Source: Oscillospiraceae bacterium
Lineage (GTDB): Bacteria; Bacillota; Clostridia; Oscillospirales; CAG-272
Assembly: GCA_015065455.1 (NCBI GenBank)
Contig: SVQI01000001.1
Coordinates: forward strand, 61,090-125,089
Direction of reading: 5' to 3'
Length of the DNA stretch: 64,000 bases
The position numbers were made by a program, and so were the translations under genes. Within the stretch, counting starts at the first letter, position 1. Every line of letters begins with the position of its first letter. Of the stretch, positions 341-62,962 are shown piece after piece. The notes beneath the pieces were generated by a model that was not told the origin of the DNA, ran no database searches, and saw only the letters and a list, made by a program, of their open reading frames with translations.

Positions 341-546
341 CACAAGAGGGGCTTTTTGAAAAAAGCCCCTCTTAAACTCCCCAAAAACTTTAATCGAATA
401 ACCCGTCTTCCGCAGACAAAGGAGGGTGCCGAGGGAGGAAACCCCTCGGTCGTTTTAGGGGTAGGGGGTTACGGGGGTGGGGGAATCGAAACCCTCACCC
501 CCGTATGCCTTCTTTGGTTACTTTCTTGGCACGCAAGAAAGTAACG
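341..546 (+). repeat. Mosaic intergenic repeat, locus A (module H then module S)
   Basis: The H-type hairpin AGAGGGGCTTTTT/AAAAAGCCCCTCT plus a ...AAAACTTTAAT tail, then an S module ending in the invariant hairpin at 517-545. Shares modules with the nine other loci. Confidence 0.85.
411..546 (+). repeat. Module S copy 1 (candidate structured RNA unit)
   Basis: Hairpin 1 is CCGAGGG/CCCTCGG. The G-rich hairpin CGGGGGTGGGGG-aatcgaaa-CCCTCACCCCCG has one G-T pair. The invariant GTTACTTTCTTG-gcacg-CAAGAAAGTAAC lies at 517-545. Confidence 0.7.
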
Positions 547-748
547 AAGAAAAAGAAAAAACGAATGATTTATACCAATTATAAATCTTGCACAAAGACT
601 CTAACCATTTTTTATGACAATCTTCTTTTTTATCCTCGGTTTTATTCAAATTTTTTTAAAAAAGAGGATTTTTTTGTTTTTTTGCGTATATTATATATAC
701 AATCTTTTTAAAGTTTTTGATATGATATAATTTAGGCTGGGTGATTTT

Positions 749-1750
749 TTGAAGAATATTCGTGAATATATGTATGCAGAAGAAAGACTGACTTTGTCCG
801 AATTTGCCTTTTTAACCGAAAACACCCGAGGCAGAGAAAAACCTATTCCGCCTTGCCTTATTCGTACAGAGTTCGGCAGAGACAGAGACAGGATTACTCA
901 CAGCAAGTCCTTTCGCCGACTTATGCACAAAACTCAGGTTTTCTTGGGTCCCGAAGACGACCATTACAGAACCCGTATGTCGCACACCCTTGAGGTAACG
1001 CAGATTGCAAGAACAATTTCACGAGCTCTGCGCCTTAACGAAATGCTTACCGAGGCAATAGCCCTCGGCCACGACCTCGGCCACACACCGTTCGGTCACG
1101 CTGGCGAAAGAGTTCTCCAAAGATGCTATTCCCCGGACTTTTCCCACTACAAACAGTCGTTGCGAGTTGTCGAAAAGCTTGAAAACGACGGCGAAGGGTT
1201 AAATCTTACCTGGGAAGTGCGCGACGGAATAGTTAATCACACAGGAAAAAACTTAGCATCAACACTTGAAGGCGTCGTTGTTAAATTTGCCGACCGAATC
1301 GCTTATATTAATCACGACATTGACGATGCGGAAAGAGCAAAAATACTTCGCCCCGAGGATATTCCGAAAGAGCTTCGCGACGTTCTCGGAAATTCGAGCA
1401 CCGAAAGAATTGCAAGTATGGTTTCTTCGGTCGTTAACGCGAGCGAGGGCAGAAACCAAATTACAATGGAAGACTACGTTCTTGACGCAACCAATAAGCT
1501 TCGCGAATTTATGTTCCAAAACGTTTACACCAACCCAATCGCAAAGGGAGAAGAAGCAAAGGTCGATATAATGCTCGAAAAACTGTATGAGCACTTTGTT
1601 AAACACCCCGAAGAAATGGGCCCCGAATATAAAAAGCATCTTGAAAACGAGGGCGTTGAACGAATCGTGTGCGACTATATCGCAGGAATGACTGACAGAT
1701 ACGCTTTGGCTAAGTATAAAGACATTTTCTTGCCGAAAATGTGGAAATAA
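749..1750 (+). CDS. dgt: dGTP triphosphohydrolase-like HD-domain protein
   Basis: HD-domain motifs HTLEVTQIART and GHDLGHTPFGHAGE are present, and the gene sits just upstream of dnaG-sigA. The start is TTG at 749; an alternative ATG lies at 770. Confidence 0.8.
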   Translation: MKNIREYMYAEERLTLSEFAFLTENTRGREKPIPPCLIRTEFGRDRDRITHSKSFRRLMHKTQVFLGPEDDHYRTRMSHTLEVTQIARTISRALRLNEMLTEAIALGHDLGHTPFGHAGERVLQRCYSPDFSHYKQSLRVVEKLENDGEGLNLTWEVRDGIVNHTGKNLASTLEGVVVKFADRIAYINHDIDDAERAKILRPEDIPKELRDVLGNSSTERIASMVSSVVNASEGRNQITMEDYVLDATNKLREFMFQNVYTNPIAKGEEAKVDIMLEKLYEHFVKHPEEMGPEYKKHLENEGVERIVCDYIAGMTDRYALAKYKDIFLPKMWK

Positions 1751-1794
1751 TTCTTTTTTACAAAAATTTATAAAAAAGAGAAAGGAGGAGAGTT

Positions 1795-3537
1795 ATGCTG
1801 ATACCGCCCGCAGTGATTGAAGAAATCAAATTCAGAAACGATATTGAATCGGTCGTTTCTGCCTACGTAAACTTAAAACCCGCAGGCTCAAACCTGATTG
1901 GACTTTGTCCTTTCCACAGCGAAAAAACTCCCTCTTTTACAGTTTTTAAAAATACGCAAACTTGTTACTGCTTCGGTTGCGGCTCGGGCGGAGACGTCGT
2001 TACTTTCATAATGAAAATGGAAAACCTCGACTACGTCAGCGCTCTTGAGTTTCTTGCAAAACGAGTAGGAATTACTATTCCCAGAAATTCAAACGACGAG
2101 CAGAGACAGGTTCGTTCAACAAGAATTCTTGAAATGAACAAGTCAGCGGCAAAATTTTTCCACAGCTGTCTTATATCGGAATCGGGCAAGGAAGCGCTTG
2201 AATATCTCAAAAAAAGAAAATTCTCCCCTGCCCTTATAAAGCATTTCGGCATTGGCTTCGCTCCGAACAGCTTCGACGCACTTTATAAACACCTTAAATC
2301 ACAAGGCTTTACCGACAAGGAAATGATTTCGGGCTTCCTCTGTAAAATGAGCCAAAAAACGAACAGGCCTTTTGATTTGTTCAGAAACAGAGTTATTATC
2401 CCCATTATAGATACCAAGGGCAACGTTATCGCTTTCGGCGGACGCGTACTTGACGACTCGCTCCCCAAATATTTGAACTCAAGTGATACGCCCGTTTTCA
2501 AAAAATCAAAAAATTTGTTTGCTCTTAACTACGCAAGGCGCGATTGCGCTGACAGAATTATTCTGTGTGAAGGATATATGGACGTTATCGCACTTCACGG
2601 TGCGGGATTTTCAAACGCTGTGGCAACCCTCGGCACAGCCATAACACCTGAGCAAGCGCGTATTATGGAAAAATACACAAAAAGCGTCGTTATTGCTTAC
2701 GACAGCGACGAAGCGGGACAAAGGGCGGCTGACAAGGCGTTTAAGCTTCTCGGTGAGGTAGGTCTTGACGTTAAGATACTGAAAATGACGGGAGCAAAGG
2801 ACCCCGACGAATATATCAAAAAATTTGGCCCCGAAAGATTTAAGAGATTGCTTGATGAAAGCAAGACGCATTTTGACTATAAATTTGAATCGATACTTTC
2901 AAAGCACGACGTATCGCAGACCCCCGAAAAGCTCAAGGCTTTGAGTCAGGTAACAGACGTTATTGCGAACGTTGCTTCGGCTGTCGAACGGGAAATTTAT
3001 ATTGCCAAGGTTTCCGAAAAGCTCGACGTTACAAAAGACAATCTGAAACACGACGTTGACAAAAAAATAAGACAGCAAATAAAAGAAAAACAAAAAAACG
3101 AAAGCAGAAAGATAATGCTTGAAAGCGCAGGCTTCGGCGACAGGATAAACCCCGATTATGCAAAGAACGTCAGGGCAGCTTCTGCTGAAGAATCCATTCT
3201 CAGCATTATTCTCACTTATCCCGAGCTTTTGAAAAAGGTTAAAGACGGAACGGCAGAGCTTTGTGCCGACGATTTCTTTACCGCTTTCGGCAAAAAGATA
3301 TTTGAAAAGAGCATTGAATTATACAGCGACGATATTTCTTTTGATTACGGTCTTCTCGGAAGTGAATTTACACCCGATGAGATGGGCAGAATTACCGCCA
3401 TTGTACTGAAAAGAAATAAGCTTTCTCAAAACGGTGAGCAAGAGCTTTACGACTGCATAAAAGTTCTGAAATCTGAAAAAGAAAAACAGACAGCGTCACT
3501 TACGGATATTATAAACGCAAGAAGAAACAAGCAATAA
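1795..3537 (+). CDS. dnaG: DNA primase
   Basis: Zinc-finger motif CPFHSEKTPSF...CFGCGSGGD and TOPRIM motif EGYMDV are present. AAAGGAGG lies upstream of the ATG. The gene precedes sigA, as in the conserved operon. Confidence 0.95.
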   Translation: MLIPPAVIEEIKFRNDIESVVSAYVNLKPAGSNLIGLCPFHSEKTPSFTVFKNTQTCYCFGCGSGGDVVTFIMKMENLDYVSALEFLAKRVGITIPRNSNDEQRQVRSTRILEMNKSAAKFFHSCLISESGKEALEYLKKRKFSPALIKHFGIGFAPNSFDALYKHLKSQGFTDKEMISGFLCKMSQKTNRPFDLFRNRVIIPIIDTKGNVIAFGGRVLDDSLPKYLNSSDTPVFKKSKNLFALNYARRDCADRIILCEGYMDVIALHGAGFSNAVATLGTAITPEQARIMEKYTKSVVIAYDSDEAGQRAADKAFKLLGEVGLDVKILKMTGAKDPDEYIKKFGPERFKRLLDESKTHFDYKFESILSKHDVSQTPEKLKALSQVTDVIANVASAVEREIYIAKVSEKLDVTKDNLKHDVDKKIRQQIKEKQKNESRKIMLESAGFGDRINPDYAKNVRAASAEESILSIILTYPELLKKVKDGTAELCADDFFTAFGKKIFEKSIELYSDDISFDYGLLGSEFTPDEMGRITAIVLKRNKLSQNGEQELYDCIKVLKSEKEKQTASLTDIINARRNKQ

Positions 3538-3581
3538 AACATTTTGTTTAAAAATATAATTAATATACAGGAGTAACGAAA

Positions 3582-5087: not shown

Positions 5088-6905
5088 ATGAAAAAGTCAT
5101 TGTTGGCATTATTTTTAGCACTCGTTATGTGTTTGTCCCTTTTCTGCACAGCTTGTAGCAGTTCTGGTGATGAAGAAAACCCCGACGTTCTTAATACCTC
5201 GGAGTCTGACATCGCACCTATGACTATTACGCTTTACGCTCCGACAAACAGTACGACAACAAAAGATCAGGTAAAGCTCGTTGAAGCTGAATTTAACAAA
5301 GTTACAGAAGCTAAATTCAACACTCACGTTGTTTTTAACCTTATTCCCGAAGATGACTACGAAGAGGTTATCTACTCCAGACTCGAAGGCCTTCGCAAGC
5401 AGGCTGCAGCAGAGCTTGAAGATGAAACAAAGAAACCTAACGTTACTCCTCTTTCCGACAATTCAAAATATCCCGGTATCAAAGACAACCAGCTTGATAT
5501 ATTCTTGGTAAACACCTTTGAAACATATTACGCTTTGGCTACGGGAACATACTATAAGCCCGAAAATAACGAATTACCCGAAGGCGCGCTTTATCCCCTC
5601 GATGAATCACTCAAAGAAAAAACTACTCTTCTTAACTCATATGCATACCCCTACTTGCTCCGCGCAGCAAGAATAGACGACCTTGATACAGGTACACAGG
5701 GTGTATTCGGTGTATTCAACAACACTATTTTTGGTGAATACCAGTACCTTTTGCTCAACAAAGAGCTTGTTGACAAGTACAACTACGACCCCGAAAATAT
5801 GTTTGACCTTTCTTCTATCTCTCTCTTCTTGAAGGAAGTTAAGCAGAACGAAGCAGGCGTAATTCCCTTCCTCGGAGACCTCGAAGCTCCCGTTGAATAC
5901 TTTAACGGTACAAAGTCACTTATCGGCGCTTACGTTGGAAAAGATTATACTTCTTCCGGCACAATTAACGCTACAAGCTACCTTCCCGCAGCAACCGCAC
6001 CCAACAACCTCTTTAACTCAGCTGAGTACAGAGTATGGATGAGAGAATACAACTCTCTCTTTAATGCAGGTTGTTTCGTTGCAAAGACAGATGCAAACGC
6101 TAACTCCAAGTTTGCAGCTACAGTAGTTACAGGCGACGTAACACTTTCTCCCACATACGCTGACGTATACGGAAACTACAAGGTTGACGATTACGGTTTC
6201 AAGTATATTACATACGAAGACGGTGTTGATTACTACGTATCAGTTTACAAAAGACCCGTTGCAAATGACGAAAACGTATTTAAGGCAGGCTATGTTGTAG
6301 GCGGTTACACAGAAGACGCTGACCGTTGTATGGAAATTATTCAGGCGCTCAACACAGACGCTAAGCTCGCTAACCTCTTCATGTACGGTGTTCAGGATGT
6401 TCACTATACACTTAACGTTGACACAAACGTTGTTCACAAGACAACAGATACATATTCGATGGATATCGAAACTGTTGGTAACATGTACTTGCTCAATCCT
6501 TCCGACGATATGGATGAGTATTGGAAATTTATGAGCGCTAACAAATGGCAGAACGCAAAGAATACAAACCTCGAAGCAGTTATGAGTCCCTTCCTTGCAT
6601 TCCACTATGACCCTGAGCAGCCCGCTGAAGACGAACTTGAAGCAGGCAAGGTTTACATCGATATGTCTTTTGAAGAAGTTATGGCTGAAATCGAAAAGCT
6701 TTCTCCTGCATTCTACGAAAAGGCACTTCACTACGTTGAAACTCCCGAACTTCCCTTTGCTGACTACATTAAGACAGTATATACAGAAGTTTCCGAAAAC
6801 GAATACGTAAGTTCTATCGGTAGCTTTGATAAGGGTATGTACAACATGCAGCTTATCTACAAAGAATGGTATCAGGCTCACTACAACGTAAAGCTTGCTG
6901 ACTAA
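5088..6905 (+). CDS. Large secreted lipoprotein, possibly a solute-binding-protein-like fold; function unknown
   Basis: The N-terminal signal peptide ends in ...SLFCTAC-SSSGD, a lipobox-like Cys. There is a strong RBS (AGGAGG), a consensus promoter upstream and a terminator downstream. No transporter genes are adjacent. Confidence 0.6.
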   Translation: MKKSLLALFLALVMCLSLFCTACSSSGDEENPDVLNTSESDIAPMTITLYAPTNSTTTKDQVKLVEAEFNKVTEAKFNTHVVFNLIPEDDYEEVIYSRLEGLRKQAAAELEDETKKPNVTPLSDNSKYPGIKDNQLDIFLVNTFETYYALATGTYYKPENNELPEGALYPLDESLKEKTTLLNSYAYPYLLRAARIDDLDTGTQGVFGVFNNTIFGEYQYLLLNKELVDKYNYDPENMFDLSSISLFLKEVKQNEAGVIPFLGDLEAPVEYFNGTKSLIGAYVGKDYTSSGTINATSYLPAATAPNNLFNSAEYRVWMREYNSLFNAGCFVAKTDANANSKFAATVVTGDVTLSPTYADVYGNYKVDDYGFKYITYEDGVDYYVSVYKRPVANDENVFKAGYVVGGYTEDADRCMEIIQALNTDAKLANLFMYGVQDVHYTLNVDTNVVHKTTDTYSMDIETVGNMYLLNPSDDMDEYWKFMSANKWQNAKNTNLEAVMSPFLAFHYDPEQPAEDELEAGKVYIDMSFEEVMAEIEKLSPAFYEKALHYVETPELPFADYIKTVYTEVSENEYVSSIGSFDKGMYNMQLIYKEWYQAHYNVKLAD

Positions 6906-6921
6906 TTTAAAATAATTACAA

Positions 6922-6955
6922 AGCTCCCCGAAAAAATCGGGGAGCTTATTTTTAT
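6922..6955 (+). terminator. Intrinsic terminator of the lipoprotein gene
   Basis: AGCTCCCCGA-aaaaa-TCGGGGAGCT followed by a T-rich run. Confidence 0.8.
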
Positions 6956-6957
6956 TA

Positions 6958-7203
6958 TAAAACGGGCGGACAAACAAATCCGCCCCTACATAGTTAGGCT
7001 TTATTGTCTTGCTGTGCGTGTTCGAGATCCTTCGCTGCGCCGCCACGATGTCATTCTTGAGCGAAGCGAAGAATCCCGTGGCGGCTTGCTCAAGGATGAC
7101 AAACGAACACGCAATATAACGCGCTCCCGCGTTTTTTTAAAAGAGGCACAGATTGTCAGCTTCTTCGCTCCCGAACTCTTGACACCGCAAAAACTTTAAA
7201 TAG
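6958..7203 (+). repeat. Mosaic intergenic repeat, locus F (modules R, K, degenerate T, truncated H)
   Basis: Near-identical to 23425-23700 over the R and K modules. Lies in the convergent spacer between the lipoprotein gene and rplS. Confidence 0.9.
7015..7113 (+). repeat. Module K copy (orientation a)
   Basis: TGCGTGTTCG ... CGAACACGCA terminal inverted repeats enclose interleaved repeats B-C-D-B'-C'-D'. The C/C' pair is CCGCCACG/CGTGGCGG. Confidence 0.85.
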
Positions 7204-7235
7204 ATAATCATTTATTATTTTTCTATATTATTTTC

Positions 7236-7279
7236 AAAAAATAAAAACCCGATGGAAGATTGTTTCTTCCGTCGGGTTT
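7236..7279 (-). terminator. Intrinsic terminator of rplS
   Basis: Minus strand: AACCCGACGGAAG-aaacaat-CTTCCATCGGGTT followed by TTTTTATTTTTT. Confidence 0.75.
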
Positions 7280-12235: not shown

Positions 12236-13723
12236 ATGAAAAACATTAACTACATCAGCACAAGAGGAAACACAAATCCCGTATCTTCCGCGCAGGCTAT
12301 TAAGCAAGGTCTTGCCGATGACGGCGGTCTTTTTATGCCGGAAGCTATTCCCTCTCTTACAGAAAAGGATTTTGACGTATTGAAAAAGGCTTCGTATCCT
12401 GAAAGAGCCGCTTACGTTATGTCAAAGTTCCTTACTGATTACACATACGAAGAGCTTCTTGCAGATTGCAAGGAAAGCTATTCGGAAGCTCGCTTCCCCG
12501 GCGGTGCCGCTCCCTTAACAAACGTAGGAAATCTCCGTTTGCTTGAGCTTTGGCACGGTCCTACCTGCGCTTTCAAGGATATGGCGCTTCAGGTTATGCC
12601 GAGACTTCTTTCAAGAGCTTTGGTAAAGACGGGCGAAAAAAGAACTGCTTTTATCCTCGTTGCAACGTCAGGTGATACAGGTAAGGCTGCGCTTGAAGGC
12701 TACAAGGACGTTGACGGAATTAAAATTATGGTATTCTACCCCGTTGACGGCGTAAGTAAGGTTCAGAAATTACAGATGGCAACTCAGGAAGGAAACAACG
12801 TTACCGTTTGCGCTATCAAGGGTAACTTTGACGATGCTCAGAACGGCGTTAAAAAGATTTTCGGAAACGCTGAAACAGCAGAACTTTTAAACAAGAATGA
12901 CCACTTCTTCTCCTCGGCTAACTCTATTAACTGGGGCAGACTCGTTCCTCAGATAGTTTACTATATTTCTTCATACTGCGATATGGTAAACGCCGGCGAT
13001 ATAAATGAAGGAGACGAAGTAAATATATGCGTTCCCACAGGTAACTTCGGTAATATTTTTGCCGCTTATATTGCAAAAATGATGGGGCTTCCCGTTAACC
13101 GCTTTATCTGCGCTTCAAACTGCAACAATATCCTCACCGATTTTATTTCAACGGGTACGTACGACAGAAACCGTGCGTTCCACACGACTATGTCTCCCTC
13201 TATGGATATTCTTATTTCGAGCAACCTCGAAAGACTCCTCTACGTTATCGCAGGTCAGGAAAAGACTGCTTCTTATATGAAGGAGCTTAACACAAAGGGC
13301 GTATATACAGTAGAAAACGAAGTTAAAGAAAAGATTTCTTCTAACTTCTCAGGCTACTTCTGCGGAGAAGAGGATACCGCTAAAACCATTAAAGAAACTT
13401 TTGATAATTACAACTACCTCATTGATACTCATACGGCAGTAGCTGTTAAGTGCGCAAATGAGTATATGAAGGATACCGGAGATAACCGCAAGATAATCGT
13501 TGCTTCAACGGCATCTCCTTATAAGTTTGCATCAAATGTTTACACGTCTCTTACAGGCGAATCTCTTGAAAACGAATTTGATGCACTTAAGGCAACAGAA
13601 AAGCTTTCGGGTACAAATATTCCTACCCCCTTGGCAACACTTGAAAGCAAGGCTGTACGCTTTACTACCGTTATTAACCCCGATGATATGACTAAGGAAG
13701 TTTTAAAAACCATCGGAATCTGA
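12236..13723 (+). CDS. thrC: Threonine synthase (long form)
   Basis: PLP-lysine context PTCAFKDMALQ and TSGDTG are present. The 495-aa length fits the long ThrC class. Confidence 0.9.
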   Translation: MKNINYISTRGNTNPVSSAQAIKQGLADDGGLFMPEAIPSLTEKDFDVLKKASYPERAAYVMSKFLTDYTYEELLADCKESYSEARFPGGAAPLTNVGNLRLLELWHGPTCAFKDMALQVMPRLLSRALVKTGEKRTAFILVATSGDTGKAALEGYKDVDGIKIMVFYPVDGVSKVQKLQMATQEGNNVTVCAIKGNFDDAQNGVKKIFGNAETAELLNKNDHFFSSANSINWGRLVPQIVYYISSYCDMVNAGDINEGDEVNICVPTGNFGNIFAAYIAKMMGLPVNRFICASNCNNILTDFISTGTYDRNRAFHTTMSPSMDILISSNLERLLYVIAGQEKTASYMKELNTKGVYTVENEVKEKISSNFSGYFCGEEDTAKTIKETFDNYNYLIDTHTAVAVKCANEYMKDTGDNRKIIVASTASPYKFASNVYTSLTGESLENEFDALKATEKLSGTNIPTPLATLESKAVRFTTVINPDDMTKEVLKTIGI

Positions 13724-16106: not shown

Positions 16107-16691
16107 ATGGCATTGGTACCAACAGTTATAGAACAAACAAACCGTGGCGAAAGAGCGTATGACATTTACTCCCGTTTGCTCAATGACAGAATTATTTTTC
16201 TCAGCGACGAAGTTAATGACACAACAGCATCTCTTGTAGTAGCTCAGCTGCTTTTCCTTGAAGCGCAAGACCCCGATAAAGATATTTCTTTGTATATAAA
16301 CAGCCCCGGCGGTTCAATAACCGCCGGAATGGCTATTTATGATACTATGAACTACATTAAATGCGACGTTTCTACCATTTGCGTAGGTATGGCGGCAAGC
16401 ATGGGTGCTTTTCTCCTTTCCGCAGGCGCAAAGGGCAAGAGATGTGCTCTCCCCAACAGCGAAATTATGATACACCAGCCTCTCGGCGGTATGCAGGGTC
16501 AGGCTACCGATATTAAAATCCACGCAGACCGTATCATTAAGATTCGCGAAAAGCTTAACTCCATTCTTTCGGATGTTACCGGTCAGCCCATTGAAAAGAT
16601 TGAACACGATACCGAAAGAGATAACTTTATGTCCGCAGAAGAGGCGCTTAATTACGGCCTTATTGACAAGGTTATTACAAAAAAGATTTAA
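16107..16691 (+). CDS. clpP: ATP-dependent Clp protease proteolytic subunit
   Basis: Catalytic contexts [11 protein letters not shown] and IMIHQPLGG. Confidence 0.95.
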
Positions 16692-19025: not shown

Positions 19026-19030
19026 AACAA

Positions 19031-19064
19031 GAGAGCGACACAAATTCGCTCTCTTTATTTTTTG
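19031..19064 (+). terminator. Intrinsic terminator after the lipid kinase gene
   Basis: GAGAGCGA-cacaaat-TCGCTCTC followed by TTTATTTTTT. Confidence 0.8.
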
Positions 19065-19404
19065 AGTAAGACGTGAGAATAGCCCCCTACAAATCTTAAG
19101 TTGCTAATAATTTAGACGACCTCATCCGTCGCGCCGCGTTATATAACAATATATATTTAAATATAATGGCGGCACGCCACCTTCTCCCACCGGAGAAGGC
19201 GCAAAATTAGTGCAAATTATAAGTAATAAAAAATATTTTATGAAATCATAAGACAATGATATAAAAACAAAAGACAAAGACTGTACTCTGTGCCTTCTCC
19301 AGTGGAAGAAGGTGGCACACCGCATACAGATTTTGTTTTTACAAATATAAAAAGCAGTGTGACGGATGAGTTCGTCTATCATACCAAATATTTCACTAAT
19401 TTTT

Positions 19405-19590
19405 ACCTCCATCTGACGAGGGAGGTGGCTCGGCAATAAACAGATATACAGTATAACTATTCTTTGTTGCCGAGACGGAGGGAGAGATATACGTTAATTA
19501 TCTGATTGCAATACTGTTTGTTTAAACCGTTCGTTTTTCTCTCCCTCAGTCAAAAACAAGTTTTTGACAGCTCCCTCCTCAGATGGAGCT
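19405..19590 (+). repeat. Module N, complete copy (nested hairpins, MITE-like 18-bp terminal inverted repeats)
   Basis: The outer arms are CTCCATCTGACGAGGGAG and CTCCCTCCTCAGATGGAG. They enclose three hairpins: CTCGGCAA/TTGCCGAG, GACGGAGGGAGAGA/TCTCTCCCTCAGTC and GTCAAAAAC-aa-GTTTTTGAC. Confidence 0.8.
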
Positions 19591-19708
19591 AAAAGATACA
19601 TTTTTAAAAAACCGAGGCGTCGAGGAAGGGGTTCCCCGAAACGCACGAAGTAAGTTTTGGGGGTTCTCGTGTGCGCCGTCCCCTACCAAATTAGGCAATA
19701 CCACTTTT

Positions 19709-19840
19709 GCAAACCAAGGGGGGTACCGAGGGAGGAACGCCCTCGGTCGTTTCAAGGGTTGGGTTCAAAGGGAGGGGAAATCGAAATCCCCGCCCTTTGT
19801 GCCTTCTTTGGTTACTTTCTTGGCACGCAAGAAAGTAACG
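19709..19840 (+). repeat. Module S copy 2
   Basis: Same architecture. The G-rich hairpin is AAAGGGAGGGGA-aatcgaaa-TCCCCGCCCTTT. Invariant hairpin at 19811-19839. Confidence 0.7.
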
Positions 19841-19933
19841 TAAAAAAGCAAAAGACAATATTATCTAATTAAAACGTTTGCTTTCTCTCCCTCAGTCAAC
19901 TTCGTTGACAGCGTCTACTGCGGTTCGGTCACG

Positions 19934-19981
19934 GCTCGAGAATGACAACGCGGCGGCGCAGCGAAGGATCCCGAACACGCA
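19934..19981 (-). repeat. Module K half copy (orientation b)
   Basis: GCTCGAGAATGACAACGCGGCGGCGCAGCGAAGGATCCCGAACACGCA equals the right half of the locus G copy. Confidence 0.8.
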
Positions 19982-20170
19982 ATTTAACGCGCTCTCGAAC
20001 CCTTGACAAAAGGGGCTTTTTAAAAAAAGCCCCTCTTGACTCCCCCAAAACTTTTAATAAAAATTTTTATATTATTATTTTAAAATAATATTTTAATTGC
20101 GCTTTTTGAAAAAAACTCCTTTGAAATCCGCAAAAACTTTAATAAGAATTTTAATTCTTATGCTTTGTGA

Positions 20171-20208
20171 AAACAAAAATCCCCTCTGTTTTGCTCAAAA
20201 CAGAGGGG
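20171..20208 (-). terminator. Intrinsic terminator of the SGNH hydrolase gene (hairpin usable on both strands)
   Basis: CCCCTCTGTTTT-gctc-AAAACAGAGGGG. The minus strand then reads ATTTTTGTTTT. Confidence 0.75.
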
Positions 20209-20221
20209 TATCTTTTATTTC

Positions 20222-22732: not shown

Positions 22733-23383
22733 ATGAAATACGAAGCGGTCATTTTTGACCTTGACGGAACACTTTTGAATACGCTTGACGACCTCGCGGA
22801 CAGCCTTAATTACACCCTAAAAAAGAACGGCCTGCCCGAAAGAACGAGAGACGAGGTCAGACTGTTTGTGGGCAACGGAATAAGAAAGCTTATGGAGAGA
22901 GGAGTTCCCACAGGTACAGAGGTTGACGTTATTGACAAGGTCCATTCGGATTTTACAGAGCATTACAAAATACACTGCAACGACAAGACACGACCCTACG
23001 ACTCCGTTCTTGATATACTTGCAAAGCTAAAAAATGCAGGCGTTAAGCTTGCCGTTCTTTCAAATAAAGCCGACTATGCCGTTCAGGATCTGTGCGTAAG
23101 ATACTTTGAAGGACTTATTGACGTAGCGGCGGGGGAAATTATCGGCATACCAAAAAAGCCGTCGCCCGAGGGAGTTTACAATACTCTTGAAAAGCTTGGC
23201 GTTACAGCCGAAAAATGCGTATACATAGGCGACTCTGACGTTGACGTTCTGACGGCAAAAAATTCAAATATGGACTGTATTGCTGTTGACTGGGGTTTCA
23301 GAGACAGAGATGTTCTTGTAAATGCGGGCGCTGAAGTTATTGTATCTTCCCCCGAGAAGCTTTTTGAAGAATTAATTAAATAA
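22733..23383 (+). CDS. HAD-superfamily phosphatase (phosphoglycolate phosphatase/PpaX-like)
   Basis: HAD motif I VIFDLDGTLLNT, motif II SNK and motif III/IV GDSDVD. Confidence 0.8.
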   Translation: MKYEAVIFDLDGTLLNTLDDLADSLNYTLKKNGLPERTRDEVRLFVGNGIRKLMERGVPTGTEVDVIDKVHSDFTEHYKIHCNDKTRPYDSVLDILAKLKNAGVKLAVLSNKADYAVQDLCVRYFEGLIDVAAGEIIGIPKKPSPEGVYNTLEKLGVTAEKCVYIGDSDVDVLTAKNSNMDCIAVDWGFRDRDVLVNAGAEVIVSSPEKLFEELIK

Positions 23384-23394
23384 TTAAGCAAAAA

Positions 23395-23416
23395 GGAGCT
23401 AAAAAGCTCCTTTTTT
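23395..23416 (+). terminator. Intrinsic terminator after the HAD phosphatase gene
   Basis: GGAGCT-aaaa-AGCTCC followed by TTTTTT. Confidence 0.7.
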
Positions 23417-23424
23417 GTTGTTAA

Positions 23425-23700
23425 AAAACGGTCGGACAAACAAATCCGCCCCTACATAGTTAGGCTTTATTGTCTTACTGTGCGTGTTCTAGATCCTTCG
23501 CTGCGCCGCCACGATGTCATTCTTGAGCGAAGCGAAGAATCCCGTGGCGGCTTGCTCAAGGATGACAAACGAACACGCAATATAACACGCTCCCGCGTTT
23601 TTTAAAAGGAGTCCATACAATCAGGAGCTTCGCTCCCGAACCCATACAAAAGGAGCGCTTTTAAAAAAGCGCCCTCTTGACTCCCTCAAAACTTTAAAAA
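23425..23700 (+). repeat. Mosaic intergenic repeat, locus F2 (modules R, K, T-like, H)
   Basis: Aligns with 6958-7203 and 62596-62820. Confidence 0.9.
23481..23579 (+). repeat. Module K copy (orientation a)
   Basis: Near-identical to 7015-7113. Confidence 0.85.
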
Positions 23701-23786
23701 CCAGCATAATATGACCTGTATATCTCTTACATAGTTTTTGATTTATGCATATTATATTATATAATATATAAAAATAATAAAATATA

Positions 23787-23815
23787 TTTACATTGTTGCA
23801 AAAAAGTGGTATAAT
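23787..23815 (+). promoter_or_regulatory. Putative gdpP-rplI-dnaB promoter
   Basis: TTTACA, a 17-nt spacer, then TATAAT preceded by TGg (extended -10). Confidence 0.5.
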
Positions 23816-23889
23816 GAGTATGATTGCAGATTTTATATTCTGCGATGGGTAGATTTGATTTATGAATTTTTACGCTCGGTGAGGTAATT

Positions 23890-40248: not shown

Positions 40249-40281
40249 AATGCGCTGTTTTAACAAACAGCGCATTTTTTA
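40249..40281 (+). terminator. Intrinsic terminator after the MORN-repeat gene
   Basis: AATGCGCTGTTT-taac-AAACAGCGCATT running into TTTTTT. Confidence 0.75.
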
Positions 40282-40287
40282 TATTAT

Positions 40288-40960
40288 GTTGTCGGGTCGG
40301 AGGGAGAGATAATTGTTAATTATTTGATTGCAATATTGTTTGTTTAAACCGTTCATTTTTCTCTCCCTCAGTCAAAAACAAGTTTTTGACAGCTCCCTCG
40401 TCAGATGGAGCTAAAAGATACATTTTTAAAAAATCGGGACGTCGAGGAAGGGGTTCCCCGAAACGCACGAAGTAAGTTTTGAGGGTTCTCGTGTGCGCCG
40501 TCCCCTACCAAATTAGGCAATACCACTTTTGCAAACCAAGGGGGGTACCGAGGGAGGAACGCCCTCGGCCGTTTGAAAGGGAGGGGTCAAGGGGAGGGGA
40601 GGATCGGAACTCCCTCTCCCCTTTGTGCCTTCTTTGGTTACTTTCTTGGCACGCAAGAAAGTAACGTAAAAAAAGAAAAGACAATATTATCTGTTTAAAA
40701 CGTTTGCTTTTCTCTCCCTCAGTCAAAAACAAGTTTTTGACAGCGTCTACTGCGGTTCGGTCACGGCTCGGCTCTGACATCACACCGTGATGTCATTCAC
40801 TCCCTCGCCGCCGCTTCGCTACCTCGTCAGATGGAGCCGAGAATTACGCGCTTCGCGCGTAAAAAGACACAGAATGTCAGCTTCTTTGCTCCCAAACCCA
40901 CACAAGAGGAGAACTTTTAAAAAAGTGCCCTCTTGACTCCCTCAAAACTTTTAATAAAAA
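40288..40960 (+). repeat. Mosaic intergenic repeat, locus C (5'-truncated N, L, S, N-arm fragment, degenerate K, T, H)
   Basis: 40291-40666 aligns almost base for base with 19466-19840. Confidence 0.9.
40531..40666 (+). repeat. Module S copy 3
   Basis: Same architecture. Invariant hairpin at 40637-40665. Confidence 0.7.
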
Positions 40961-40983
40961 ATATTATATTATTTTTTTCAAAT

Positions 40984-41018
40984 CAAAAGACATTATTCAA
41001 AAGAATAATGTCTTTTTT
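40984..41018. terminator. Hairpin terminator at the 3' end of the XRE-membrane gene (stronger T-run on the + strand)
   Basis: AAGACATTATTC-aaaa-GAATAATGTCTT. TTTTTT follows on the + strand and TTTTGATTT on the - strand. Confidence 0.55.
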
Positions 41019-45342: not shown

Positions 45343-45760
45343 GAGGGTACCGAGAAAAAAACATTTTAACCCCCAAAAAACAAAAAGTATAACCTAACTT
45401 TCCATCTTTTGCAAACCAAGGAGGGTTCCGAGGGAGGAACGCCCTCGGCCGTTTGAAAGGGAGGGGTCAAGGGGAGGGGAGGATCGGAACTCTCCTCCCC
45501 TTTGTGCCTTCTTTGGTTACTTTCTTGGCACGCAAGAAAGTAACGTAAAAAAGAAAAGACAATATTATCTGTTTGAAACGTTTGCTTTTCTCTCCCTCAG
45601 TCATTTTCTAACGAAAATGCCAGCTCCCTCGTCAGATGGAGCCGAGAATTACGCGCTTCGCGCGTAAAAAGGCACAGAATGTCAGGAGCTTCGCTCCCGA
45701 ACCCACACAAAAGGAGCGCTTTTAAAAAAGCGCCCTCTTGACTCCCCCAAAACTTTTAAA
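45343..45760 (+). repeat. Mosaic intergenic repeat, locus D (S with an alternative leader, N right arm, T, H)
   Basis: Starts 2 nt after the stop codon of the GT8-acyltransferase fusion, with no terminator in between. The S module is near-identical to locus C. Confidence 0.9.
45411..45545 (+). repeat. Module S copy 4
   Basis: The G-rich hairpin AAGGGGAGGGGAG-gatcggaa-CTCTCCTCCCCTT pairs fully with one G-T. Invariant hairpin at 45516-45544. Confidence 0.7.
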
Positions 45761-45771
45761 TATTAAATAAT

Positions 45772-45806
45772 ACAAAAAGGAGCTTTTAAAAGCTCCTTTT
45801 TATTTT
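45772..45806. terminator. Bidirectional terminator (serves ymdB on the minus strand)
   Basis: Perfect 26-nt palindrome AAAAGGAGCTTTTAAAAGCTCCTTTT flanked by T-runs on both strands. Confidence 0.75.
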
Positions 45807-45814
45807 TATTCTGT

Positions 45815-46591
45815 TTAGAATTTTATTCTTCTTATGCCCACTATTTTTGTTTCGTTACCTGTCGTGTCAAAATCAAAAATAACACCGCTGAATTCAATTT
45901 CGCCCTCGGCAAACTCAAATCTTACAGGCATTTTCGTTATCATTTTTTCAATAATAATCTCGCTTTTTACTCCAAGAATAGAATTCTTCGGACCGCACAT
46001 TCCAAGGTCGGTTATATATCCGCTCCCCTTTGGCAATATCTGCTCGTCTGCCGTCTGAACGTGAGTATGTGTTCCGAATATTCCGTGTATCCGTCCGTCA
46101 AAATATCTTGCCAACGCATATTTTTCTCCCGTAGCTTCAGCGTGAATATCAAGCAAGGCTACGTCATACTTCCCTTTTTCTCTTTCAAGCACGGCTTCCA
46201 CCGCACCAAAAGGACAAGAAAGACTTTCCATATACACAGTTCCCGACACGTTCATAACCATAACTTTAACACCGGAACAATCAACTACCGTATATCCGTT
46301 CCCTGCCGAACGGCTTGGAAAATTGAGCGGTCTTACAATATACTTGCTCGAGTCAAGAAACTCTCTCAGCGAATTTTTCTGCCAGATATGGTTCCCGCCC
46401 GTTATAACGTCAACTCCATAGTCGAGTATCTGACGCGCCATTTCGGCATCAAGTCCGTTTCCTCGGCTTGCATTCTCTCCGTTTGCCACAACAAAATCTA
46501 TTTTTTCTTGCTTTCGGTAGCTCCACAGCCTTTTTCCAAGCTCCTCAACAGCCAACGGACTGACTATATCGCCAAGCGCCAAAATCTTCAT
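45815..46591 (-). CDS. ymdB: YmdB-family metallophosphoesterase (2',3'-cyclic-nucleotide phosphodiesterase family)
   Basis: MKILALGDIVS, GENASRGNG and GGNHIW motifs. The gene is immediately downstream of rny, as in B. subtilis. Confidence 0.85.
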   Translation of the reverse strand: MKILALGDIVSPLAVEELGKRLWSYRKQEKIDFVVANGENASRGNGLDAEMARQILDYGVDVITGGNHIWQKNSLREFLDSSKYIVRPLNFPSRSAGNGYTVVDCSGVKVMVMNVSGTVYMESLSCPFGAVEAVLEREKGKYDVALLDIHAEATGEKYALARYFDGRIHGIFGTHTHVQTADEQILPKGSGYITDLGMCGPKNSILGVKSEIIIEKMITKMPVRFEFAEGEIEFSGVIFDFDTTGNETKIVGIRRIKF

Positions 46592-50049: not shown

Positions 50050-50670
50050 ATGAAAAAGACAGTTTCAAGAGCAACGTTGGGCAGAGTTCCCGTCTACTTA
50101 AAATGTTTAAAATCATTACCTGAAGATGAAAAATACGTTTCAGCCACAAAAATTGCAACAAAGCTAAAGCTTGGCGACGTTCTCGTAAGAAAAGACCTTC
50201 AGGCGATAAGCGGAGAGGGAAAACCCAAGGTCGGATATGAAAAAAACGAGCTTATAGAAAAGCTCGCCGAATATCTTGAAAACGTAGACAAAAGAAACCG
50301 CGCTGTCATAGTCGGTGCAGGTAAATTGGGGTGCGCTTTACTTTGCTACGGCGGATTCAAAGATTTTGGAGTTGATATAGTTGCCGCCTTTGACAACGAC
50401 GAAAAAAAGGTTGGAACGGTCGTCGGGGGGAAAAATATATATTCTATTGACGAATTTGAAAAATTCTGCACGGAAAACGAAATAAACATAGGAATTATAA
50501 CAGTTCCGTCAGCATTTGCACAAAGCGTGTGTGACAAAATGGTTTCTTGCGGAGTCAAGGCGATATGGAATTTCGGTTCGGCATCGCTCAACGTTCCTGA
50601 AAACATTATCGTTCAGCAAGAAAACCTTGCATTATCACTCGCATATCTCAACGTCTTAATAACAAATTAA
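50050..50670 (+). CDS. rex: Redox-sensing transcriptional repressor Rex
   Basis: N-terminal winged helix (TLGRVPVYLKCL) and Rossmann motif VGAGKLGCAL. The start is set at the ATG at 50050 after GGAGGA. The track ORF start at 49963 overlaps the previous gene. Confidence 0.85.
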   Translation: MKKTVSRATLGRVPVYLKCLKSLPEDEKYVSATKIATKLKLGDVLVRKDLQAISGEGKPKVGYEKNELIEKLAEYLENVDKRNRAVIVGAGKLGCALLCYGGFKDFGVDIVAAFDNDEKKVGTVVGGKNIYSIDEFEKFCTENEINIGIITVPSAFAQSVCDKMVSCGVKAIWNFGSASLNVPENIIVQQENLALSLAYLNVLITN

Positions 50671-50678
50671 AACACGTC

Positions 50679-50772
50679 AATTATTGAAATTTTTTGAAGA
50701 TTCCAAAGGGGCTTTTTTCAAAAAGCCCCTTTGGCGTGGTTTCAGGAGTGGAACTCCTGACATTTTGTGCCT
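50679..50772 (-). repeat. Mosaic intergenic repeat, locus I (reverse orientation; second T hairpin plus H)
   Basis: The reverse complement reads GGCACAAAATGTCAGGAGTTCCACTCCTGAAACCACGCCAAAGGGGCTTTTTGAAAAAAGCCCCTTTGGAATC... This is collinear with GGCACAGAATGTCAGGAGCTTCGCTCCCGAACCCACACAAAAGGAGCGCTTTTAAAAAAGCGCCCTCTTGACTC at 45671-45742. Confidence 0.8.
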
Positions 50773-50776
50773 CTAC

Positions 50777-50808
50777 AAAAAAACAGGAGCATTTGCTCCC
50801 GTTTTTTA
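50777..50808. terminator. Short bidirectional hairpin terminator between rex (+) and the UPF0371 gene (-)
   Basis: GGAGC-attt-GCTCC with an A-run before and a T-run after. The stem is short, so confidence is modest. Confidence 0.5.
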
Positions 50809-55694: not shown

Positions 55695-56117
55695 ATAAAA
55701 CAAAAAGTATAACCTAACCTTCCATCTTTCGCAAACGATGGGGGTGCAAAGGGGGTAATCCCCCTTTGTCGTTTGGTGGTTGGGGGTCGAGGGGGAGGAG
55801 GAATCGGAACCTCCGCCCCCTTGTGCCTTCTTTGGTTACTTTCTTGGCACGCAAGAAAGTAACATAAAAAAGAAAAAGACAATATTATTTAGCCAAACAA
55901 TACGTTTTAAAACAAAAAAACGCTCTCGCGTTTTTCAAAGGAGCACAAACAATCAGGAGCTTCGCTCCCGAACCCACACAAAAGGAGCACTTTTGAAAAA
56001 GTGCCCTCTTGACTCCCTCAAAACTTTTAATAAAAAATTATATATTATTTTTTAAGATAATATTTTAATTACGCTTTTTGAAAAAAGCTCCTTTGGAATC
56101 CGCAAAAACTTTTATTA
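55695..56117 (+). repeat. Mosaic intergenic repeat, locus E (S with an alternative leader, partial T, H, H')
   Basis: It shares the leader ACAAAAAGTATAACCTAAC(C/T)TTCCATCTT with locus D. It has the invariant hairpin at 55835-55863 and H modules at 55980-56117. Confidence 0.9.
55731..55864 (+). repeat. Module S copy 5 (most divergent)
   Basis: Hairpin 1 is replaced by the unrelated CAAAGGGGG-taat-CCCCCTTTG. The G-rich hairpin is GGGGGAGGAGG-aatcggaa-CCTCCGCCCCC. Invariant hairpin at 55835-55863. Confidence 0.7.
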
Positions 56118-56120
56118 AAA

Positions 56121-56153
56121 CAAAAAAAGACGGCTGTTTAAACCGTCTTTTTA
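56121..56153. terminator. Bidirectional terminator (serves ackA on the minus strand)
   Basis: AAGACGG-ctgtttaaa-CCGTCTT flanked by A7 upstream and T-rich sequence downstream. Confidence 0.7.
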
Positions 56154-60068: not shown

Positions 60069-60078
60069 TTATTTTGAC

Positions 60079-60107
60079 AAAAGCCCAATCGGGCTTTTGT
60101 TTTTTTG
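60079..60107 (+). terminator. Intrinsic terminator after the 106-aa ORF
   Basis: AAAAGCCC-aatc-GGGCTTTT followed by GTTTTTTT. Confidence 0.8.
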
Positions 60108-60163: not shown

Positions 60164-60262
60164 TGCGTGTTCGATTGTCATCCTTGAGCAAGCCGCCGCG
60201 AGATTCTTCGCTACGCTCGAGAATGACAACGCGGCGGCGCAGCGAAGGATCCCGAACACGCA
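60164..60262 (-). repeat. Module K copy (orientation b, inverted relative to its downstream flank)
   Basis: The 79-nt interior equals the reverse complement of the interior of 62647-62745 at every position I checked by hand. Confidence 0.85.
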
Positions 60263-60343
60263 ATTTAACGCGCTCCCGAACCCACACCAAAGGTGCTTTT
60301 TGAAAAAAACTCCTTTGGAATCCGCAAAAACTTTTAATAAAAA
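60164..60343 (+). repeat. Mosaic intergenic repeat, locus G (K in inverted orientation, then an H/H' hybrid)
   Basis: 60164-60262 is the exact reverse complement of the K core at 62648-62744. The downstream flank AATTTAACGCGCTCCCGAACCC is in the same orientation as at locus H. Confidence 0.9.
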
Positions 60344-60459
60344 TTTTTTATATTATTTTTTCAAAATAATTATCTTTTGTTTTCCTGCGCCGACAGCGTT
60401 TACTCTTAAAAAATTCACATAAAATTTAACAAATTTTAGTGTATTTCTTCCAAAAGGTC

Positions 60460-62252: not shown

Positions 62253-62259
62253 AAATATG

Positions 62260-62296
62260 ATACCGTTGCATTTTTACGTGCAACGGTATTTTTTTG
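62260..62296 (+). terminator. Intrinsic terminator after the thioesterase gene
   Basis: ATACCGTTGCA-tttttac(g)-TGCAACGGTAT followed by TTTTTTT. Confidence 0.8.
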
Positions 62297-62383
62297 CATT
62301 ACGGGCGGATAGCAAAAACCACCCTACTCACAGATAAGGTCAAAGGATAGAAATTGAACAGAGACGAATTTGCACTAACTTTT

Positions 62384-62571
62384 ACCTCCATCTGACGAGG
62401 GAGGTGGCTCGGCAGTCAGCAAATATCAATTTTAATTTATCTTTGCTGCCGAGACGGAGGGAGAGATATGTGTTAGATTTTTGATTGCAATATTGTGTGT
62501 TTAAACCGTTCGTTCTTCTCTCCCTCAGTCATTTTCTAACAAAAATGCCAGCTCCCTCGTCAGATGGAGCT
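62384..62571 (+). repeat. Module N, complete copy
   Basis: Same outer arms (CTCCATCTGACGAGGGAG / CTCCCTCGTCAGATGGAG). The first hairpin is compensated to CTCGGCAG/CTGCCGAG. The third hairpin is replaced by CATTTTC-taac-(A)AAAATG. Confidence 0.8.
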
Positions 62572-62646
62572 AAAAAGTTAGATTATTTCGGGAAAACGGA
62601 CGTATAGCAAAAACGCCCCTACAATTTTAGGGTTTATTGTCTTAAC

Positions 62647-62745
62647 CGCGTGTTCGGGATCCTTCGCTGCGCCGCCGCGTTGTCATTCTCGAGCGTAGCG
62701 AAGAATCTCGCGGCGGCTTGCTCAAGGATGACAATCGAACACGCA
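62647..62745 (+). repeat. Module K copy (orientation a)
   Basis: Same layout. The C/C' pair is CCGCCGCG/CGCGGCGG, a compensated change relative to locus F. Confidence 0.85.
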
Positions 62746-62962
62746 ATTTAACGCGCTCCCGAACCCACACAAGAGGTGCACTTTTGAAAAAGTGCCCTCT
62801 TGACTCCCTCAAAACTTTTAATAAAAATTTTTATATTATTTTAATTGCGCTTTTGAAAAAAGCTCCTTTGGAATCCGCAAAAACTTTAAATAGAAAAATA
62901 TCTTTACATTTTTTTATTAGTATGTTATACTAAAATGAGAGATAATATATATAAAAAAAGGG

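Follow-up and report, generated by a model that had tools for sequence, protein, structure and literature searches.

Repetitive extragenic palindromes (REPs) are recognized by a conserved GT(A/G)G head located directly 5′ of the foot of a palindrome (PMC2817692, Table 1), and the TnpA-REP enzyme requires a guide tetranucleotide at the foot of the hairpin (PMC6006769). Group 1 REP-associated tyrosine transposases (RAYTs) occur in Clostridia (PMC5581495). The BOX, RUP and SPRITE repeats are over-represented between convergent genes, a distribution that has been read as tolerance of insertions downstream of genes (PMC3049150). Here, we describe a family of modular intergenic repeats in a 64,000-nt stretch of DNA (hereafter, the window) from an uncultured species of Oscillospiraceae (assembly GCA_015065455.1, contig SVQI01000001.1, positions 61,090 to 125,089 of the forward strand). 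The ten repeat loci of the window are likely to be copies of a lineage-specific, non-coding, mobile or recombining mosaic repeat resembling REPs, the bacterial interspersed mosaic elements (BIMEs) and BOX, possibly co-opted as terminators. The family is a new example of the kind of repeat represented by REP/BIME, BOX/SPRITE and the neisserial NIME, and not a new kind of system.

Results

Ten intergenic loci belong to one repeat family

Self-BLASTN of the window recovered ten repeat loci, labelled A to J, at 314-612, 6891-7241, 19113-20221, 23357-23838, 40278-40983, 45377-45824, 50650-50794, 55697-56123, 60164-60386 and 62370-62950. A preliminary description of this DNA had claimed a dense, modular family of ten intergenic loci covering about 4 kb, or about 6%, of the window. 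These are exactly the loci that self-BLASTN returned. With the boundaries first given, they total 4,192 nt and account for 6.55% of the window and for 44% of the 9,475 nt between its genes. Exact-seed repeat finding and self-BLASTN detected no further repeats except an unrelated parB/noc paralogue pair and, within a single gene, MORN repeats. The open reading frames (ORFs) inside the repeats had no Pfam match, indicating that the repeats are non-coding; ARAGORN found no tRNAs and TRF no tandem arrays in the repeat loci.

Could the repeats have been collapsed or chimerically joined during metagenome assembly? Contigs of other samples end inside repeats (L002 and many contigs of the sister species introduced below; fetched loci are numbered with an L), and two MEGAHIT contigs connect repeat loci with different genes. 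However, the window, which is part of JGI contig Ga0257089_10000108 (243 kb), is matched by a contig of another JGI sample (L001) that is 100% identical across locus D and part of locus C, further ENA contigs are 97-100% identical over repeat loci, and the unique flanks agree between assemblies. In addition, diverged copies of the same modules occur at 24 or more places in the metagenome-assembled genome (MAG) of a different, sister species, 'Oscillospiraceae bacterium SIG632', and one G-H unit is present in a third Clostridia MAG (L013). Because the copies within the window diverge from one another by 5-40%, they are not collapsed duplicates. The earlier worry that the copies might be restricted to this window or might be an artefact is thus dismissed by the identical independent assemblies and the copies in the sister species, and we regard the probability of an artefact as negligible.

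The repeats lie on the 3′ side of genes

Placement was counted on a curated map of 55 genes. All six convergent spacers of the window are occupied by a repeat locus and none of the six divergent spacers is (Fisher p=0.002), while tandem spacers are filled in 4 of 10 cases when they are at least 100 nt long and in none of 32 when they are short. This agrees with the first account of the loci, in which six had been placed in convergent spacers, four in tandem spacers and none in a divergent one. The same rule also predicted the arrangement of the next 9.7 kb of the contig (L041), an out-of-sample region in which one convergent spacer is filled, one divergent spacer is empty and a 641-nt tandem spacer is filled. 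For the window and this extension together, convergent occupancy is 7/7 and divergent occupancy 0/7 (Fisher p=0.0006). The polarity reported earlier, with nine of the ten loci on the + strand, was confirmed and becomes 11 of 12 when the two copies in the extension, both on the + strand, are included. GC skew over the 64 kb did not show the direction of replication. In the sister MAG, the 3′ end of the element faces the convergent gene in 20 of 26 cases; empty convergent spacers are found there too.

The modules follow a fixed order

The family consists of about a dozen hairpin modules in a fixed 5′-to-3′ order. Each locus is a contiguous slice of one grammar, [P-L]-[R]-[X]-K-G-H-[L3]-[S]-N-T1-[T2], in which brackets mark optional modules. 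Nine directional probes mapped on the window and on 25 sister-species loci gave 41 clusters, in which the transitions were N-T (23), K-GH (18), GH-N (10), GH-L3 (9), R-K (5) and T-K (4); reversed module order was found in none of the 41. When aligned to locus C, the longest copy, locus E matches over 500 nt in one piece at 90%, loci F and H each give a single gapped alignment, and locus J matches the two ends. The modules had previously been described as shuffled, truncated, duplicated and inverted from locus to locus. Truncation and duplication (T followed by T) were borne out, but the collinearity of the 41 clusters contradicts shuffling, and inversion was limited to S and to the core of X, which sits inverted within the G hairpin in many sister-species copies. 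The T-K junction, seen in locus A, in L005 (4050-4170) and in L014, shows that units can follow one another head to tail.

The P-L unit is predicted to fold into a four-way junction with a closing stem of 18-24 bp (-79 and -92 kcal/mol, z -8 and -9), and S, 99 nt long, is a quasi-palindrome bounded by 10-nt inverted repeats. K-G-H is predicted to form two hairpins inside a conserved long-range AAGGAGG/CCUUCUU helix, followed by the 12-bp H hairpin. All four canonical G-quadruplex (G4) motifs of the window, against 0.14 expected in shuffled sequences, lie on the + strand in the G module (458-483, 19756-19777, 40579-40599 and 45459-45479), where they overlap the 5′ arm of the G hairpin; the G-module subfamilies differ in sequence and retain the four G-runs.

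Stems are compensated and strand-asymmetric

In an alignment of 15 K-G-H copies, 97% of the cells were paired, as compared with 54-72% when the partners were slid. Five pairs of the K and G hairpins have changed on both sides, which was reached in none of 500 shuffles. The 12 pairs of H never vary, and H is therefore uninformative as to selection on structure. The differences among the K-G-H copies amount to three or four subfamilies that are common to both species, so that the independent compensatory events are few. Elsewhere in the element, the variable hairpin of L3 has at least six unrelated stems within an identical scaffold, the inner stems of the T hairpin read GCAC/GTGC, GCGC/GCGC, GTAC/GTAC or GGC/GCC, and the R-type hairpins have at least four stems, with CTAC invariant in all of them. 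The initial proposal that stems are maintained by compensatory changes therefore stands for K and G, for L3 and for the R-type hairpins, with few independent events, and does not extend to the invariant H.

The folds also differ between strands. In all 15 copies, the + strand of K-G-H folds more stably by about 10 kcal/mol (consensus fold, -46 kcal/mol on the + strand versus -33 kcal/mol on the - strand), and G.U occupies 61 cells versus 4 for A.C. For N, L3 and many copies of T, in contrast, what is A.C on the + strand becomes G.U on the - strand, on which these modules fold better. Folding energy alone cannot tell RNA from single-stranded DNA.

High conservation is combined with turnover of content

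Between the window species and SIG632, coding identity is 81% and identity at four-fold degenerate sites is 60% (2,252 sites). The best cross-species identity of K-G-H is 80-94%, with the best partners at non-orthologous loci; the family is thus conserved far above neutral sites. The most extreme case is the H core, a 42-nt sequence with a 12-bp hairpin that is invariant in 15 of 15 aligned copies from the two species (TGCCTTCTTTGGTTACTTTCTTGGCACGCAAGAAAGTAAC, for example at 45505-45546 on the + strand, and also at 505-546, 19799-19840, 40625-40666 and 55825-55866). The five spacers that could be compared with SIG632 are filled in both species by differing slices. Within the window species, one strain contig (L034) has a short R-type hairpin in place of X as well as a second K-G-H unit, and in another (L032, 1391-1487) the interior of S (approximately 78 nt), which is flanked by the 10-nt inverted repeats GCGTGTTCG and CGAACACGC, is inverted at locus J with unchanged flanks. 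Within the window itself, the S copies of loci I (60164-60261) and J (62648-62745) are 100% complementary over 98 nt. The flip of S is a small-inversion polymorphism, possibly produced by hairpin-mediated flipping, gene conversion or a recombinase.

Four more distant relatives, in which the fructose-bisphosphate aldolase (FBA) is 98%, 94%, 91% and 89% identical, have orthologous spacers of 30-215 nt and no module matches in the 8.9 kb considered for each. Because these relatives lack the modules, the expansion of the family is placed in the ancestor shared by the window species and SIG632. Differences in gene order between relatives and strains coincide with repeat loci. For example, an acyl-ACP thioesterase gene is directly convergent with ymdB-rny in L036 (5713-5743); in the window, ymdB-rny (45815) adjoins locus F and the thioesterase gene (62252) adjoins locus J, 17 kb apart. 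Two MEGAHIT contigs (ERZ27248351; L032, 996-1700, and L034, 3440-4966) link J and C to khpA-rpsP-ffh and a PMT gene, and these alternative junctions could be either real rearrangements or assembly chimeras.

Hairpins like H were also noted elsewhere. The core CTTTCTTGGCACGCAAGAAAG, preceded by a GTGCC(C)TTCTT box and with an outer stem that is compensated (GTCACC/GGTGAC; CTAC/GTAG), is found at L028 1000-1060 and L013 1530-1600. The former (JGI contig Ga0210075_1002775) comes from an unrelated high-GC organism, where the hairpin neighbours msrB. As a motif, H may be distributed more widely than the repeat family. Of three matches to the H stem in a metagenome scan, the one in L028 is true, and the other two, in a plant-type P450 gene (L029) and a helicase gene (L030), were rejected as coding coincidences.

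Comparison with described repeats and RNA motifs

The general features of bacterial small interspersed repeats (compare PMC3049150) are all present: the family is multi-copy, non-coding, intergenic, confined to a narrow clade, variable among strains and enriched between convergent genes. The likeness to BIME/REP and BOX elements, which had been suggested at the outset, is supported at several levels. Both the present family and the REP/BIME system are extragenic, dense, hairpin-based mosaics in which palindromic units and other conserved motifs stand in a defined order; both lie at the 3′ ends of transcription units, have stems that vary by complementary mutations, are restricted to a lineage and are much better conserved than neutral DNA. 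The R-type modules (and only these, not the whole element) are imperfect, GC-rich, extragenic palindromes of 20-40 nt in many copies, as REPs are; examples are ACGGGCGGA-N7-TCCGCCCCTACA and ACGGGGCGTCGAGGACGTCGCCCCCTACA, and about 30 copies occur in the window, its extension and the 25 fetched loci, all of them intergenic. On the + strand, CTAC directly follows the stem, so that on the - strand a GTAG head lies 5′ of the GC-rich palindrome, as in GTAGGGGCGGA-N7-TCCGCCC; this matches the published heads and palindromes of REPs (PMC2817692, Table 1) and the guide tetranucleotide that TnpA-REP needs (PMC6006769). The heptamer CCCCTAC occurs nine times versus 2.2 expected, six times on the + strand in R-type or X modules and a seventh time on the - strand in the G module of locus A. 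The family differs from REP/BIME in that it has no sequence similarity to any published REP and its host belongs to the Clostridia, and in that hairpins lacking a GTAG head (K, G, H, L3, N, T and S) make up the greater part of the element.

With BOX, RUP and SPRITE, the family shares a Firmicute host, a composite structure of fixed module order with optional or duplicated middle modules, strong predicted folds, over-representation between convergent genes, and presence in the closest sister species with absence from other relatives; like SPRITE (PMC3049150), its R, T and N modules resemble terminators. In contrast to BOX, it has approximately 12 module types rather than 3, a composite length of up to approximately 750 nt, no terminal inverted repeats such as those of boxA/boxC, and an unrelated sequence, and its placement bias is stronger (7/7 versus 0/7), whereas BOX is slightly over-represented between divergently transcribed genes. 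The NIME/dRS3 and Correia repeats are likewise mosaic arrays of short intergenic units that are tied to rearrangement breakpoints, with terminal inverted repeats on some units and segments that can invert. However, their sequences are unrelated, and NIME units are bracketed by one 20-bp inverted repeat (dRS3), whereas the present family is collinear and has no common bracket repeat. Terminal inverted repeats are limited to the sub-modules S (10 nt), M (18 nt) and P-L (approximately 24-33 nt).

Nothing reached the Rfam gathering score in the window, three sub-regions of it or 21 loci, searched in both gathering and E-value modes. Phage and plasmid collections searched by BLASTN, and a scan of viral contigs, likewise contained no match. 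The earlier statement that the sequences belong to no named family therefore holds at the Rfam gathering score, with two caveats: the REP signature of the R-type modules, and a set of weak K matches to RF02937, the Clostridiales-2 RNA motif (Weinberg et al. 2017, PMC5737381). Seven copies of K scored 22-28 bits (best, 27.8) against a gathering score of 58.6, four in the window (19700-19775, 40522-40597, 45406-45477 and 55722-55797) and three in the sister species (L005, 4124-4196; L014, 409-480; L027, 1972-2039), and one of them has a different stem. K spans the whole 82-nt model, of which it matches the GGGGGU lead, a GC hairpin of 7-8 bp whose stems co-vary, and two flanks (CGUuU-AAGG and AAGGGA), but the 25-nt insert of the model is only 6 nt in K, and K is one module of a longer repeat. 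Judged by this resemblance, a distant relationship rather than membership is possible, and in other Clostridia the RF02937 motif may in turn represent one module of interspersed repeats related to these. Rfam matches to microRNAs, WsnRNA46 and BTnc were rejected as palindrome noise.

Composition of the loci and their terminators

The slices held by the ten loci and their positions relative to terminators are as follows. Four loci, all on the + strand, lie in tandem spacers. Locus A (341-562) follows a terminator at 303-328 and contains T1 (342-394), K (407-462), G (approximately 455-500) and H (503-546); its T1-to-K junction is identical to that of the sister-species locus L005 (4050-4170). 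Locus I (60164-60345), after a terminator at 60076-60101, is composed of S with a flipped interior (60164-60262), the tail of N (60262-60285) and T2 (60286-60345). Locus J (62295-62893), after a terminator at 62259-62290, runs from a degenerate R (62295-62330) through P-L (62370-62587), R (62593-62643), S (62648-62745) and T1 (62769-62821) to T2 (62838-62893). The fourth, locus D (23425-23700), follows a terminator at 23391-23414 and has R (23425-23480), S (23481-23579), N (23598-23645) and T1 (23646-23699); it is 95% identical over 200 nt to locus B.

The six remaining loci occupy convergent spacers. Locus B (6958-7203, + strand) is enclosed by terminators at 6921-6947 and 7246-7278 and consists of an R-type, REP-like hairpin with a CTAC end (6961-6989), S (7015-7113), N (7133-7176) and a T tail without the T hairpin (7177-7203). 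Locus C (19072-20148, + strand), enclosed by terminators at 19029-19055 and 20181-20208, begins with an R remnant (19072-19100), the palindrome M (19113-19378), the four-way P-L unit (19391-19594) and X (19590-19700), continues with K (19700-19760), G-H (19761-19840) and L3 (19872-19935), and ends with half of S (19934-19981), T1 (20006-20058) and T2 (20091-20148). Locus E (40288-40960, + strand), enclosed by terminators at 40249-40276 and 40985-41016, has a 5′-truncated L (40288-40411), X (40412-40522), K (40522-40580), G-H (40580-40665), L3 (40698-40850), N (40850-40901) and T1 (40902-40954). Locus F (45343-45760, + strand) begins 2 nt past a stop codon, has its sole + strand terminator downstream (45774-45801), and contains K (45406-45460), G-H (45460-45545), L3 (45575-45655), N (45655-45706) and T1 (45707-45760). 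Locus G (50679-50772), the sole reverse copy, lies on the - strand between a stop codon at 50670 and a bidirectional terminator at 50782-50803, with T2 (50681-50734) and N (50736-50772); in the sister species (L025), its spacer contains a far longer slice in the opposite orientation. Locus H (55695-56120, + strand), between a stop codon at 55671 and a bidirectional terminator at 56124-56152, contains K with a variant stem (55722-55783), G-H (55783-55865), N (55926-55977), T1 (55978-56030) and T2 (56064-56120).

According to the terminator scan, seven of the ten loci (A-E, I and J) thus start 10-60 nt past the canonical terminator of the upstream gene, and in B, C and E a second terminator follows the element. 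Only in F, G and H is the element situated after a stop codon and ahead of the first, bidirectional terminator, and G runs antisense to the gene from which it would be transcribed. Two loci, F and H, had been expected to be transcribed as 3′ untranslated region (UTR). This is upheld for both, and G shares their position, but it does not apply to the seven loci beyond a canonical terminator, which makes a mainly RNA-level role less likely. On the - strand, which faces the convergent gene, the scan also scores N and T as intrinsic terminators. Some modules, namely those of the R type together with N and T on the opposite strand, are now probably back-up or primary terminators. No conserved promoter was found in or before the element, including before K. 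A candidate promoter within T (TTGACT) was rejected, with only 9 of 12 positions matching and a poor -10 element; the downstream promoters lie outside the element.

In the extension, two hairpins with the R-type stem GGGCGGA/TCCGCCC and A-/T-runs (L041, 13335-13365 and 16607-16640) are apparent bidirectional terminators of spoIIE and pemK. These suggest a common ancestry of the modules and real terminators, as has been proposed for pneumococcal SPRITE.

The palindrome M of locus C stands apart from the other modules. It is a single-copy, near-perfect palindrome of 266 nt with 18-nt inverted termini (TAGACGAcCTCATCCGTC) that folds at -106 kcal/mol (z -13) and has no counterpart in any sister-species locus. 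Its weak Rfam match to WsnRNA46 (34 bits versus 65) is probably palindrome noise; M could be a miniature transposable element with inverted repeats (MITE) or a long-hairpin RNA gene.

Neighbouring genes

The repeats are flanked by housekeeping genes that belong to the core of a Clostridia chromosome (dnaG-sigA, rplS, tig-clpP-clpX, gdpP-rplI-dnaB, tilS-hpt-ftsH, mnmG-rsmG-noc-parA-parB, rny-ymdB, ackA and fba), and no phage genes were found in the window or the following 9.7 kb. Two ParB-family genes, noc-like (36163-37026) and spo0J (37981-38868), bracket parA and share 323 nt of recognizable DNA similarity; with the upstream mnmG-rsmG, they form a gene set of the origin-proximal type, and neither dnaA nor dnaN is present in the window. 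Small genes of defence or toxin type adjoin repeat loci. At 62963-63692 of the window, an ORF of 113 aa overlaps a HEPN-domain gene, possibly forming an MNT/HEPN pair, and in L041 there are a metallo-beta-lactamase-fold protein matching the Anti-Pycsar Apyc1 family and a PemK toxin gene (12247-13020 and 16120-16593).

Discussion

By what route could such a family have spread? In our view, the repeats are probably non-autonomous DNA elements, spread and remodelled in trans. One route would be the action of a hairpin-recognizing enzyme on single-stranded DNA. The leading candidate is a Y1 transposase of the RAYT/IS200 type, because the family contains GTAG-palindrome modules and shows strand polarity; we have low confidence in this specific enzyme. 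The sequence and structure requirements of an enzyme of this kind would explain the invariant H core, the constant GTAG head beside variable R-type palindromes, and the compensated stems. The other route would be recombination or gene conversion between copies. Only those insertions that lie on the side of genes with the terminator would be retained, being harmless there, and selection would clear the promoter-bearing spacers; some of the hairpins have probably since been taken over as terminators.

Several observations weigh against this interpretation. In a REPIN-RAYT system, a single-copy RAYT gene (Y1 transposase, PF01797) is flanked by two inverted REPs. Pfam searches of the window, the 9.7-kb extension and approximately 330 kb of fetched relatives detected no gene for a transposase, an integrase or a Y1 enzyme, and tblastn with approximate RAYT/IS200 queries gave no significant match and one weak match within a 610-aa ORF of L012. 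Although module swaps and inversions were seen, no formerly empty site was observed to have gained a clean new insertion within one species. Neither terminal inverted repeats nor a target-site duplication could be defined for the whole element, and its 5′ end (R or P) is not an inverted copy of T; it is therefore not a classical MITE. The REPs of a BIME alternate in orientation, whereas the R-type hairpins mostly share one (pairs in the same orientation at L005 6492 and 6558 and at L019 905 and 971, and an inverted pair only in L017), and the conserved motifs between them are arranged as a collinear chain. The copies in SIG632 are not co-oriented with the local majority gene strand (10 of 28), a count affected by a crude ORF caller, fragmented contigs and contig-end bias. 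Because the copies are related, the shuffle statistics overstate the number of independent compensatory events. Finally, the full convergent occupancy and the conservation above neutral would also fit a host function and not mere tolerance.

What, then, could that function be? A structured RNA family, with K-G-H(-L3-N) as a 3′ UTR or small RNA acting as a 3′ stabilizer, as an RNase or ribosome decoy, or as a relative of the Clostridiales-2 motif, would be consistent with the compensated stems, with the long-range helix around K and G, and with conservation far above neutral. The preference for the + strand, in which the many G.U pairs accompany the gain of 10 kcal/mol in all 15 copies, points the same way, as do the repeated sub-threshold matches to RF02937, one variant stem included, and the necessary co-transcription of F and H with the upstream gene. 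G.U pairs do not single out RNA, however, because G.T wobble also stabilizes single-stranded DNA hairpins, and for N, T and L3 the opposite strand gives the better fold. Since the loci hold different slices, no single RNA is conserved; the element has no conserved promoter, most loci begin past a canonical terminator, with B, C and E between two, locus G is antisense to its would-be transcribing gene, and every Rfam score is below half of the gathering score. We consider an RNA family unlikely. By analogy with the binding of gyrase and IHF at BIMEs, the host might alternatively keep an element at every convergent junction as a domesticated insulator, that is, a two-sided transcription stop with K, R and G on one strand and T and N on the other, or a site of DNA topology. 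All seven convergent spacers are filled, the orthologous spacers of the sister species remain filled although their content changes, and the 3′ end of the SIG632 element mostly faces the convergent gene (20/26), as the terminator-like - strand of T and N does here. The concentration of all four G4 motifs in the G module, and the position of F, G and H between a stop codon and the only terminator, would also suit an insulator. On the other hand, the convergent genes at B, C and E already possess canonical terminators of their own, convergent spacers without an element exist in the sister MAG, spacers of 30-90 nt with one bidirectional terminator suffice in relatives whose lifestyle is similar, and plainly parasitic repeats and insertion sequence (IS) elements are also over-represented between convergent genes (PMC3049150). 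An insulator of this kind therefore seems to us doubtful, if conceivable. Both the RNA and the insulator explanations are weakened by the sandwiching of loci between terminators and by the empty spacers of relatives.

A combined form of these ideas would be a domesticated, strand-specific system of structured DNA or RNA in Clostridia with a REP/RAYT-like partnership and a 12-module grammar, kept by the host as a two-sided insulator of transcription and topology at every convergent junction; the invariant H, of which a form with compensated stems is also present in an unrelated high-GC bacterium, would be the candidate binding site of a conserved protein. We regard this as quite improbable. The repeats might also be debris of a known mobile element, such as IS ends, a group II intron, integron attC sites or a prophage. 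The MITE-like terminal inverted repeats of S, M and P-L, and the location of the elements just past terminators, which is also that of class C group II introns, would fit such an origin. It is nevertheless very unlikely, as no Rfam intron or other family was matched even at E<=1, phage, plasmid and viral collections gave no match, the flanking genes are housekeeping genes rather than cassettes, and the H palindrome GTTAC...GTAAC is the reverse of the attC core arrangement. A group II intron and integron attC sites were accordingly rejected, given the lack of Rfam support, the wrong core arrangement and the housekeeping neighbours.

The mosaic repeat that we favour, of the REP/BIME and BOX kind, has consequences for work on these organisms. 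Such repeats break metagenome assemblies and coincide with apparent rearrangement breakpoints, and because they make up 44% of the intergenic DNA, they need to be masked or modelled when the small RNAs, terminators and promoters of the clade are annotated. The flip of the 78-nt interior of S is a compact natural small-inversion polymorphism that can be counted directly in metagenomic reads. The family represents a REP/BIME-like system outside the Proteobacteria, in uncultured Oscillospiraceae, and what stands out in it is its density, its strict grammar, the complete occupancy of convergent spacers, the H hairpin that never varies and the inversion of S between strains. Discovery of a matching Y1/RAYT enzyme would extend the partnership known as REPIN-RAYT to Clostridia, and the family would then provide a clean case in which tolerated parasites can be set against working terminators or insulators.

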